Positions 6,170 through 9,811 of a stretch of 9,949 nucleotides of DNA are shown here, one piece after another (positions within the stretch are counted from its first letter, which is position 1; the number at the start of each line of letters is the position of its first letter). A model generated the notes under the pieces. It ran no database searches, was not told the origin of the DNA, and saw nothing but the letters and a program-made list of their open reading frames with translations. A program made the position numbers and the translations under genes. Source of the DNA: a virus (taxonomy: Duplodnaviria; Heunggongvirae; Uroviricota; Caudoviricetes); IMG/VR virus record IMGVR_UViG_2695420478_000007; one strand, given 5' to 3'.

Positions 6170-6288
6170 GATGGTGTTAACTCCAGTCATCGCTGGCACT
6201 ACCACTGCTGGTTCAGAGTTAAAAAAAACTATGATTTTTTTCATGATGTTACCGTAGTATGTGAGTATCCATCGAATAGACACCAAGC

Positions 6289-6310
6289 AAAAAAGCTCCC
6301 GAAGGAGCCT
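6289..6310 (-). terminator. Intrinsic terminator for cspI: stem GCUCC / GGAGC with UUCG tetraloop followed by U6 (on the - strand)
   Basis: The - strand reads GGCTCCTTCGGGAGCTTTTTT; classic stable tetraloop hairpin plus U-tract. Confidence 0.7.
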
Positions 6311-6515
6311 TCATTTTCACTTTTTTAAATCCAACGACAGACGGCTGGCATTTAAGTATTGTGAAATATTATCAAATGTAATCATCATTGATTTACAAAA
6401 GATACATTTTGCCCCGAAAGGATTCATGTCAGAAACATCAAAAGATGATGTTCTATACTGGGAACCATGACAACACGGGCATCTAAAGTGAATATGGTTT
6501 GTAATATTGTCTACC

Positions 6516-6728
6516 TCAAAGCGCCACTACATGAACAGCGGCAGGACCTTTAGGTCCGTTCTCAATACCAAATTCAACTTCCTGATTCTCAGTTAATGTT
6601 TTGAAATCGTTGCTCTGAATTGCTGAGAAATGGACAAACACATCTTTGCTGCCATCTTTCGGCGTGATGAAACCAAAACCTTTTTCAGGGTTAAACCATT
6701 TCACTAAACCAGTCATTTTGTTAGACAT
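6516..6728 (-). CDS. cspI: Cold shock protein, CspA family (70 aa)
   Basis: [38 protein letters not shown]... carries the RNP1 (KGFGFI) and RNP2 (VFVHF) motifs; C-terminus and prophage position fit cspI. Confidence 0.9.
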
Positions 6729-6908
6729 AATTATTACCTTTTGAAGAAATTAGCCCTTGGGCAGAATGGTCCGAAAAAAAATATCAGAGAGAAAAACCAA
6801 CAAGGAAATCTCAAGAGGTACAAATAATAAAATTATAACAATGACTGCTTCAGATAAATTTGTAACAAACCAGAACACCATTAACGCATGATTAACCACC
6901 CATAGCAA
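6729..6908 (-). promoter_or_regulatory. cspI promoter and long 5' UTR: -35 TTGCTA (6903-6908), -10 GTTAAT (6880-6885), predicted start near 6872, leader about 145 nt
   Basis: The - strand motif GCGTTAATG...GGTTTG is also found upstream of cspB in this window and resembles the cspA promoter and 5' leader as I recall them. Confidence 0.5.
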
Positions 6909-8430: not shown

Positions 8431-8646
8431 TTACTCTCCTCTCGCAGCCTTACGCCTGTCTTCTTTAATCTTGAAATAAAGATTTGTCAGATACGTCAGC
8501 AGGCCAAAAACCAGGCTACCCAGCACACCGATTGCAGCCCACTGTGACGGAGTTACTTTATCGAGTAACTGCAATGCCCAGAAACCAGCATTACCCGCCG
8601 ATGTGCCATAGGCAACACCTGTTGTTAACTTATCCATTGATTTCAT
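8431..8646 (-). CDS. essQ: S21-type pinholin with dual-start motif MKSMDK (71-aa antiholin from 8646, 68-aa holin from 8637)
   Basis: [71 protein letters not shown]: two transmembrane segments and a charged C-terminus, like phage 21 S; the longer ORF start at 8721 is unlikely. Confidence 0.85.
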
Positions 8647-8865
8647 ATCCTCACCCCGATGTACACGGATGGTGCAATATGTTTGAAAAGATCGGAGTCT
8701 ACGGGGTAGTTTTGACAGCACACGTTGTTCTCAACGGCGCTAAAAAAACATACACATTAAAAATGTGGGTAATTATTTTGAAAGAAAGTCATATATAAAA
8801 TAATAATACGAGAAATGTTTTCATATTTAGTGTACTGTATACGGCCATTTATACAGGAAAAGCCT

Positions 8866-9036
8866 ATGTCAGAACGTAAAAACTCAAAATCACGCCGTAA
8901 TTATCTCGTTAAATGTTCCTGCCCAAACTGCACCCAAGAGTCAGAACACAGTTTTTCAAGAGTACAAAAAGGTGCCCTTTTGATCTGCCCTCATTGCAAC
9001 AAAGTATTCCAGACAAATCTTAAAGCTGTAGCCTGA
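8866..9036 (+). CDS. Small zinc-ribbon protein (56 aa) with two CxxC pairs (CPNC...CPHC); possibly one of the small proteins described in this prophage (ynfU?)
   Basis: ATG at 8866 with AGGAA 8 nt upstream; candidate promoter -35 TTGAAA (8778-8783), 17-bp spacer, -10 TAATAA (8801-8806); the gene name is an uncertain recollection. Confidence 0.6.
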   Translation: MSERKNSKSRRNYLVKCSCPNCTQESEHSFSRVQKGALLICPHCNKVFQTNLKAVA

Positions 9037-9095
9037 TTGATTTTATTAGTAACAAGTATTTTTTATATTTTAATAATATATTTAAAGCAGATAAT

Positions 9096-9120
9096 AAAAA
9101 ACCCGCCTGAGCGGGTTTGA
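9096..9120. terminator. Strong bidirectional intrinsic terminator (stem AAACCCGC / GCGGGTTT, loop CTGA); the stronger U-tract is on the - strand
   Basis: The - strand reads AAACCCGCTCAGGCGGGTTTTTTATTAT; the + strand has A6 before and TTT after. Sits between the convergent zinc-ribbon ORF (+) and the cspB-side transcript (-). Confidence 0.75.
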
Positions 9121-9399
9121 GATTGTGGTGCTTTTTGTGGGAGTCATCCACTTACGCACTTTGTTTTGCCATGCCAGCAGTTAGCTTCTGCTGTAAAACT
9201 ATTCATGCAGCAAACCTGCACTTCACCACAATGGTTAGCATACTTTTCCTGATTAAGATTTTGCCAAATATGCTAGCCATTGTTTCATGTATTGGACCTC
9301 CTTACTTTTTATTAAAGAGATCCAATATTCACTACTCTGTCCGTATCTCTACTCAGGCATCAGCCTTCTTCGTTATCGTATACAGACGAGCGATGAATT

Positions 9400-9615
9400 T
9401 TAATCAGTAATGATGACATTTGCTGCTGCAGGACCTTTAGCACCACTCTCTATAGAGAAGGTAACCTTTTGACCTTCAAATAAGGTTCGATAATTATCAT
9501 TCTGAATCGCAGAAAAATGCACAAACACATCTTTACTACCATCAACAGGAGAAATAAAGCCGAAACCTTTATCAGCGTTAAACCATTTTACTAAACCAGT
9601 CATTTTATTTGACAT
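9400..9615 (-). CDS. cspB: Cold shock protein, CspA family (71 aa)
   Basis: [38 protein letters not shown]... with RNP1 and RNP2 motifs; position upstream of the lysis cassette fits cspB. Confidence 0.9.
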
Positions 9616-9811
9616 TCTACATTCCTTAACTTGAGCCTTTCGGCATAAATGGTTTGCATAACAGAAACGACTTCGTACTTAATTGGAGAGACTCAAAGAA
9701 GGAATAAGTGAATAACACCTGAAATGAGAACTGCTTTAGTAAACTACTTCGTATATCGTCTGTTCTTCAAACCGACGCAATCATTAACGCATAGTTGAAC
9801 ATATGAAGCAA
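9616..9811 (-). promoter_or_regulatory. cspB promoter and long 5' UTR: -35 TTGCTT (9806-9811), 18-bp spacer, -10 GTTAAT (9783-9788), start near 9775 (GGTTTGAAGAACAGAC cold-box-like), leader about 160 nt with CCGAAAGGC motif
   Basis: Resembles the cspA promoter and leader (ACGGTTTGACGTACAGAC; CGCCGAAAGGC) as I recall them; AT-rich UP-like element upstream; mirrors the cspI upstream region. Confidence 0.5.

Follow-up and report, generated by a model that had tools for sequence, protein, structure and literature searches.

The 56-codon gene that lies on the + strand between the holin gene essQ and cspB in the Qin prophage of E. coli K-12 is ynfU, the type gene of the YnfU family, whose identity and translation are already published and annotated. 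Its upstream block, Shine-Dalgarno sequence, selected ORF, short 3' untranslated region and terminal hairpin strongly indicate that the gene is a self-contained unit. The conserved feature of its setting across the family is linkage to csp genes, and an antisense relation to late phage transcription is not a family property. For the explanation as a whole, in which ynfU is a self-contained and csp-linked unit inserted into Qin that encodes a putative RNA- or ribosome-binding zinc ribbon, we would put the chances at about even. Since the gene and its translation, and the zinc-knuckle motif too, are already known the finding itself brings nothing new, and the additions made here are modest ones, namely the linkage to csp genes, the conservation of the upstream blocks and of the hairpin, and the mapping of the 3' end. 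Taken together the csp adjacency, the positive charge of the protein and the conserved control region provide a cheaply testable lead for a well-expressed orphan protein.

The window analysed, meaning the whole stretch of 9,949 nucleotides in IMG/VR record IMGVR_UViG_2695420478_000007, corresponds to Qin, a prophage of E. coli K-12. Using megablast, a 761-nt query covering positions 8640-9400 was 100% identical at the DNA level to K-12 MG1655, was found at an identity of at least 99% in 1444 E. coli records and was present in 1653 of 5426 complete genomes overall. Window positions are obtained by subtracting 861 from those of the annotated stretch (L001), and U00096.3 coordinates by adding 1,631,939 to the window position, a conversion based on the published ynfT coordinates together with L001 and verified with two Term-seq sequence strings. 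The gene order in the window runs pinQ, tfaQ, a tail-fibre remnant, nohA, ynfO, ydfO, gnsB, ynfN, ynfR and 'ynfQ' followed by cspI, rzpQ, rrrQ, ydfR, essQ, ynfU and cspB, with cspF and the antiterminator gene ydfT/quuQ coming after cspB, past the window end. The product of essQ we take to be an S21-like pinholin, from S of phage 21. A first-pass annotation made from the sequence had placed the small ORF in a gap of roughly 380 bp upstream of the pinholin gene; the interval from the essQ start (8646) to the cspB stop (9400) actually measures 753 bp, and 219 bp separate the starts of ynfU and essQ (Table 1). In several other E. coli strains IS1A or IS200C insertions occur within this essQ-ynfU-cspB interval (8640-9400), and in one bovine E. 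coli strain ynfU is annotated as two pieces.

Table 1. Features of the ynfU locus, in window coordinates
Feature	Position	Strand	Basis and remarks
essQ (PGAP name essD), holin	8431..8646	-	annotation; first gene of the lysis cassette, divergent from ynfU
TTGAAA-18-AATAAT, promoter-like match probably meant in the first-pass annotation	8778..8807	+	scan, 10/12
GAGAAA, candidate -35 region	8810..8815	+	inferred; poor match to TTGACA
TACTGT (conserved TAnnGT), candidate -10	8833..8838	+	inferred from conservation
Shine-Dalgarno AGGA	8855-8858	+	read from sequence; 7 nt 5' of ATG 8866
ynfU CDS, 56 codons + stop	8866..9036	+	100% identical to MG1655 ynfU, WP_211180497.1
ynfU 3' untranslated region, A+T-rich	9037..9098	+	between stop codon and hairpin
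Hairpin AAACCCGC-CTGA-GCGGGTTT	9099-9118	.	scan and Term-seq; + strand RNA 3' end at 9121
cspB, convergent neighbour of ynfU	9400..9615	-	annotation; assigned to the proposed ynfU-cspB-cspF insert

The first-pass annotation had described a 56-aa ORF with a good ribosome-binding site and this description holds, the ORF being the annotated ynfU (L001 9727-9897, product 'putative zinc-binding protein YnfU') with the GGA of its Shine-Dalgarno sequence invariant across 45 aligned ynfU upstream regions. A list of open reading frames gives a longer, 73-aa frame (8815-9036, +), and a protein starting from ATG 8815 was rejected on account of an in-frame TAA in the extension in several genera, so that the annotated start at 8866 is kept. 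YnfU was discovered by Weaver et al. in 2019 by ribosome profiling of Onc112- and retapamulin-stalled initiation complexes together with a chromosomal tag, its level being the highest among the newly identified small proteins that they compared, and was described by them as having 'a pair of zinc knuckles' (CPXC) and, on modelling, as moderately matching the PA0128 zinc domain (bioRxiv 10.1101/511675). Detection in that study was in stationary-phase samples at 37 C (bioRxiv 10.1101/511675), and cold is thus unnecessary for YnfU expression. The gene was independently recovered by PIRT-seq in 2025 (PMC12350097). Translation of the ORF is thereby established by published work, as is a + strand transcript by the Term-seq 3' end at window position 9121 (PMC7815308). 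In the literature naming ynfU we found no functional study and no published zinc-binding assay of the protein, and other papers merely cite the gene. Its protein is under strong purifying selection, with a median dN/dS of 0.12 over 844 pairwise comparisons of the first 49 codons and 99.8% of the pairs below 0.5.

We surveyed the genomic context of 80 ynfU loci, taken from contigs at one genome per species, with tblastn probes drawn from the proteins of the window itself. A csp gene was present within 1 kb of ynfU at 57 of the 80 species-level loci and the other 23 had none nearby. Among the 57 the csp gene was convergent and downstream in 39 cases, downstream in the same direction in 10 and upstream in 8, the commonest arrangement being one in which ynfU converges on a cspB-like gene with a cspF-like gene after it. 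In the majority of species the distance between ynfU and the csp gene is no more than a few hundred bases. As loci from different species are phylogenetically non-independent, 57/80 exaggerates how many independent events there were; when loci with common flanking DNA were pooled into distinct flanking contexts a csp-adjacent ynfU was found in 16 of 22, which is the safer figure. Background density of csp genes in flanks more than 1.5 kb from ynfU was 7 per 533 kb, so that adjacency by chance would be expected in around a few percent of cases. By comparison with this linkage a lysis or Q gene (holin, endolysin, Rz or Q homologue) was found within 2.5 kb of ynfU at only 10 of the 80 loci.

The individual settings are varied. 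In Klebsiella the chromosomal ynfU is flanked by a gene for a cysteine/methionine-metabolism enzyme and a CSD gene, after which come PTS genes, and in Enterobacter by a tautomerase gene and a regulator gene. The chromosomal ynfU of Kosakonia adjoins an HSP20 gene; at one such locus (L086 5314-5781) the two are convergent and no csp gene is present, the neighbour of ynfU again being a stress gene, here for a small heat-shock protein. Phage PHB10 carries a ynfU-csp-csp block near its integrase gene and umuDC, at a distance from any lysis genes. The Qin arrangement is also found in four to six inducible Escherichia phages, including PhiR42_1, HannyBb, Tritos and 2H10. G+C content is 31-38% over ynfU-cspB vs 47-51% over the lysis genes.

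YnfU matches both models of its family over their full length, scoring 107.3 bits against PF23499 (cut-off 27; residues 1-49 on a 49-position model) and 79.4 bits against NF038384 (cut-off 36; model positions 1-51 of 52), and as the sequence and locus are identical nothing differs from the family as described. The first-pass annotation took the two CxxC pairs to suggest a zinc ribbon that binds nucleic acid or protein. The ribbon itself is well supported, the knuckles C19-P-N-C22 and C41-P-H-C44 being invariant or nearly so among 25 aligned homologues and placed, as in zinc ribbons generally, on beta hairpins, and an AF2 model has four short strands with a pLDDT of 70; on the choice between nucleic acid and protein the fold is little informative. 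SEHSF and K35 are likewise invariant among the 25 homologues and are still present, along with the CPxC pairs, in distant members from Cronobacter, Erwinia and Hafnia. C17 is kept in close relatives and absent from distant family members.

A word-indexed homologue search returned 49 proteins, all of them containing the YnfU domain or fragments thereof, from Escherichia, Klebsiella, Enterobacter, Kosakonia, Citrobacter, Salmonella and related genera. When 1.84 billion cluster representatives were searched exhaustively with a profile, only 40 matched at E <= 0.001, the most distant members being from Cronobacter, Jejubacter, Mangrovibacter, Erwinia and Hafnia. The family is therefore narrow, limited to Enterobacterales and mostly chromosomal. 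Outside it only weak matches were seen. A profile search of PDB sequences had its best match in the DNL finger of Tim15/Zim17 (E = 0.012), followed by the zinc ribbon of ribosomal protein L44e (E = 0.028) and PA0128 (E = 0.52); sub-threshold Pfam matches were zinc ribbons throughout, and the best sequence and fold matches, weak as they are, include the L44e ribbon and small archaeal ribosome-bound zinc fingers. A PHROG search yielded nothing better than E = 0.002 and the best 25 of its 28 matches were all of unknown function. These matches support the fold and say little about the ligand.

Generic zinc ribbons such as those of PhnA/YjdM (PF08274, PA0128), L44e/eL42, LysW and the HVO_2753-type archaeal fingers resemble YnfU in being small and in having, on short beta hairpins, a pair of CxxC knuckles separated by about 18 residues, and several of them bind rRNA or the ribosome. 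They match YnfU weakly, remaining sub-threshold throughout, whereas YnfU stands alone with its own invariant SEHSF...RVQKG signature. Assignment to the PhnA/YjdM ribbon was rejected, the score being 22.4 bits against 30.8 and the C-terminal domain of PhnA being absent from a protein that ends 12 residues past its second knuckle.

The YnfU family is uniformly basic (median pI 9.6, median net charge +6.7) and the N-terminal arm is rich in arginine and lysine. Based on this charge, on the kind of weak relatives and on the Csp neighbours, YnfU may be a zinc-ribbon module whose basic N-terminal arm contacts a polyanion, with RNA or the ribosome as the likeliest ligand, and its function may be coupled to that of the adjacent Csp RNA chaperones. 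Binding to a polyanion of this kind is put forward as a tentative suggestion only, with the chances leaning against it. A fuller version, which we consider somewhat doubtful, is that YnfU could be a dedicated partner of CspB/CspF-type proteins, a basic RNA- or ribosome-binding zinc ribbon within a portable ynfU-csp stress module that would be kept chromosomally by enterobacteria and would have been acquired by lambdoid phages as a cassette of benefit to the lysogen.

The main rival to polyanion binding is a protein-binding role, in which YnfU would regulate or escort a larger protein, a role common among small bacterial proteins, for example as a DNL/Zim17-like partner of an Hsp70-type chaperone. 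The DNL finger (Zim17/Tim15/Hep1, PF05180) is the best PDB profile match and has the pattern CxxC-x3-S-x-H-x2-S...KG-x2-L-x-CPxC in common with YnfU, but unlike YnfU that family is eukaryotic and organellar. We rejected YnfU as a DNL finger because zf-DNL scores only 13.5 bits against a cut-off of 27 and the tail following CPxC is variable (TNL in E. coli), with the D-N-L motif missing from the family consensus. The scores are all below the thresholds of the families concerned, an HSP20 neighbour occurs in one context only and the high positive charge favours a polyanion as ligand, so that we regard this role as unlikely. An improbable further alternative is that YnfU binds DNA and regulates transcription, or serves as a zinc-finger activator of the phage type along the lines of Ogr/Delta or the Com protein of Mu. 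It is small, basic, four-cysteine and carried by temperate phages, and its weak Pfam matches include the Elf1 and TFIIB transcription-factor zinc ribbons; neither Ogr/Delta nor Com was found, however, among the best 25 of 30 Pfam and the best 25 of 28 PHROG matches, most ynfU copies are chromosomal and not in phage regulatory regions, and a conserved candidate target site was not found.

Upstream of ynfU a plausible sigma70 promoter had been proposed in the first-pass annotation. The match that was probably meant, TTGAAA-18-AATAAT, does exist, but promoter-like matches in the region are no more numerous than expected by chance (4 vs 4.6 +/- 2.2 in shuffled sequences) and the stretch holding this one varies between genera among the 45 aligned upstream regions. 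In the same alignment of orthologous regions conserved blocks are seen which end about 60 nt before the ATG. Of 81 unique upstream sequences, which come from many genera, 77 have a TAnnGT motif (TACTGT in E. coli) 33-36 nt 5' of the ATG, and in 76 of 79 sequences a near-invariant G (8812 in E. coli) is found exactly 21 nt 5' of the first T of TAnnGT. This spacing is that between -33 and -12 at a 17-bp spacer, and the T, A and final T of the motif are the key -10 positions. GAGAAA-17-TACTGT is therefore read here as the likely, though putative, ynfU promoter, with a predicted start near 8845 and a leader of about 20 nt. It agrees poorly with the sigma-70 consensus, at 6 of 12 positions (3 of 6 in each hexamer) and retains -12T, -11A and -7T. 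Alternatively the conserved blocks could be the site of a regulator or a leader (5' UTR) sequence.

No transcription start in the ynfU region was present in the Cappable-seq, SMRT-Cappable-seq or ROSE supplements, and comparison of the upstream block by eye with consensus sequences gave nothing convincing in the way of alternative sigma-factor, LexA, CRP or Zur sites. Across loci L003-L084 and at 8810-8838 in the window the signature reads RRGCWA-N17-TAnnGT, the fifth base of the second hexamer being invariably G. Such a G is not usual in the -10 element of sigma-70 promoters and could be the mark of a specific regulator or sigma factor common to all ynfU genes. In the leader a potential hairpin overlapping the ribosome-binding site (CTGTATA-N8-TATACAG, 8835-8856) was rejected at z = -0.92 relative to shuffled sequences. 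RNAalifold returned zero consensus pairs on 45 orthologous leaders, and a conserved RNA structure in the ynfU leader is excluded.

The terminal hairpin of ynfU has a stem of 8 bp, 5 of them G-C, that closes on a 4-nt loop. In the first-pass annotation it was read, at 9096-9120, as a strong bidirectional terminator that could also serve as a late-transcript terminator of the tR' type. On the - strand a canonical T-run, TTTTTTATTA, comes directly after the stem and makes it a canonical intrinsic terminator in that direction; on the + strand what comes after the stem is GAGATTGT, the only U-run being a UUU within the stem, after which comes GAGAUUGU. The published Term-seq data point the other way round. 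Adams et al. 2021 mapped a + strand 3' end to 1641060, which is window position 9121 and lies 3 nt past the hairpin; it occurs in two of their listed data sets, where its scores are modest at about 940-1030, and is labelled 'orphan' as ynfU is missing from their annotation (PMC7815308). No - strand 3' end at the hairpin is listed in Supplementary file 1 of the same Term-seq study (PMC7815308). For a bidirectional terminator the picture is divided, with a mapped end and no canonical T-run on the + strand and a T-run and no listed end on the - strand. The mapped + strand end indicates that the hairpin is where the ynfU transcript ends. A homologous hairpin (AAAACCCGC...GCGGGTTT) is found 60-110 nt after the ynfU stop in Escherichia, Citrobacter, Klebsiella, Raoultella and Superficieibacter, is kept even at ynfU loci without a convergent csp gene and, in orthologues from the Klebsiella oxytoca group, has T-runs on the ynfU strand, from which it follows that the hairpin is no less a part of the ynfU unit than of cspB.

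A lambda-type tR' is the first terminator after PR', located immediately past the Q gene and giving a short abundant transcript. The hairpin downstream of ynfU sits about 1.4 kb beyond the quuQ stop and was rejected as tR' on this position and on the Term-seq data. A 10-bp hairpin, AAAACCCGC...GCGGGTTTT, lies instead outside the window at L001 11282-11305, starting 106 nt past the stop codon of quuQ, and the Term-seq data place a strong 3' end of the - strand, 1642356 (L001 11278), at this quuQ-proximal hairpin (PMC7815308). Hairpin and 3' end together span approximately 106-133 nt after the quuQ stop, and by position and abundance the quuQ-proximal hairpin is the tR' equivalent of Qin. The late region of Qin should accordingly be read with its tR'-like site adjoining quuQ and with the hairpin at 9099-9118 as part of the proposed inserted ynfU/cspB block. 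About 70 nt upstream of 1642356 is a promoter-like TTTGCA-18-TAAAAT (within L001 11351-11380), and on sequence grounds this and the quuQ-proximal hairpin look like a PR'-tR' pair of Qin making a short RNA.

Two abundant - strand 3' ends at 1641224 and 1641226, window positions 9285 and 9287, have scores of 6e5 to 2.5e6 (PMC7815308). They fall just after a hairpin in the cspB 3' UTR (GGATCTCTT...AAGGAGGTCC, window 9255-9321, -). As no U-run follows the hairpin these are processed or non-canonical ends. The 3' arm of the hairpin is itself a very strong Shine-Dalgarno sequence, TAAGGAGGT, placed 7 nt before ATG 9289 (-), which opens an 11-codon ORF, MKQWLAYLAKS*.

Insertions of extra genes known as 'morons' occur in the Q-S interval of lambdoid phages, stx in Stx phages being an example. 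We suggest that ynfU-cspB-cspF would be such an A+T-rich insert between quuQ and the lysis cassette of Qin-type lambdoid phages, resembling the Q-S morons in that it has a promoter and a terminator of its own and is placed with the gene for the late antiterminator on one side and the lysis genes on the other. Unlike in those morons, ynfU faces against late transcription, and Q-dependent read-through therefore cannot express it; the cargo of the block also differs, consisting of stress-type host genes where that of the Stx-phage moron is a toxin. The antisense position of ynfU relative to the late transcript would then be a by-product of the site at which the block landed and not the purpose of the gene.

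The first-pass annotation gave that position a possible role, in that convergent transcription over the lysis leader could modulate late gene expression; on this model ynfU transcription runs against the late transcript and, by way of its promoter, its antisense RNA or the hairpin, affects how strongly the pinholin and the lysis cassette are expressed. The geometry is as it described, with ynfU on the + strand between quuQ, cspB and essQ on the - strand, and fits such a model, although it is a matter of geometry only. The arrangement is also kept in the inducible phages PhiR42_1, HannyBb, Tritos and 2H10, the Klebsiella phage ST13-OXA48phi12.4 has ynfU alone, without a csp gene and divergent from its holin gene, and on the - strand the hairpin has the form of an intrinsic terminator. 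As a role for the family the model does not hold, given the few loci with lysis or Q genes nearby and the many chromosomal copies outside prophages. Strong purifying selection indicates that the product YnfU matters and not the mere act of transcription, and the Term-seq data list no - strand 3' end at the hairpin. With the tR'-like site adjoining quuQ, late transcripts that reach the hairpin would, by lambda-type Q biology, already be Q-antiterminated. We therefore consider modulation of lysis by ynfU transcription to be very unlikely. Least likely of all is that YnfU, on the strength of five conserved cysteines in close relatives and of one preprint placing ynfU with iron-metabolism genes up in hypomagnetic cultures and in lag phase, serves chiefly in metal handling by buffering or storing zinc or iron, since one site per 56 residues makes poor storage, distant members keep four cysteines only, the weak resemblance to a Zur half-site between the upstream blocks in E. 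coli falls in a stretch that is not conserved between genera, and the surface residues that are invariant without being ligands (SEHSF, R32, Q34, K35) point to an interface with a macromolecule.

Qin encodes another small zinc-ribbon-like protein beside a csp gene. Directly downstream of cspI is the PGAP 'ynfQ' (6317-6505, -), annotated as a 'cold-shock protein', which has an ATT start and encodes a Cys-rich product of 62 residues with CPCC...CxxC. YnfR, the product of the neighbouring ynfR (6249-6314), is reported to be strongly up after cold shock (PMC6001520). Both resemble YnfU as small proteins encoded next to csp genes in the same prophage, without detectable similarity to it in sequence, and ynfU differs in converging on cspB where it might have followed a csp gene in like orientation. 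Homology of YnfU and the 'ynfQ' product was rejected, as BLASTP yields no alignment, and the likeness is a parallel only. An Rfam scan of 8722-9122 found zero known RNA families, and near the locus the only matches were to the cspA thermoregulator. These cover the 5' UTR and start of cspB (9384-9776, -; 159 bits) and of cspI (6489-6874, -; 113 bits), from which the prophage has two csp genes with cold-responsive leaders. Elsewhere in the window the Rfam family IS009 (RF02111) matched with 221 bits inside the tfaQ coding region (2096-2294, -).
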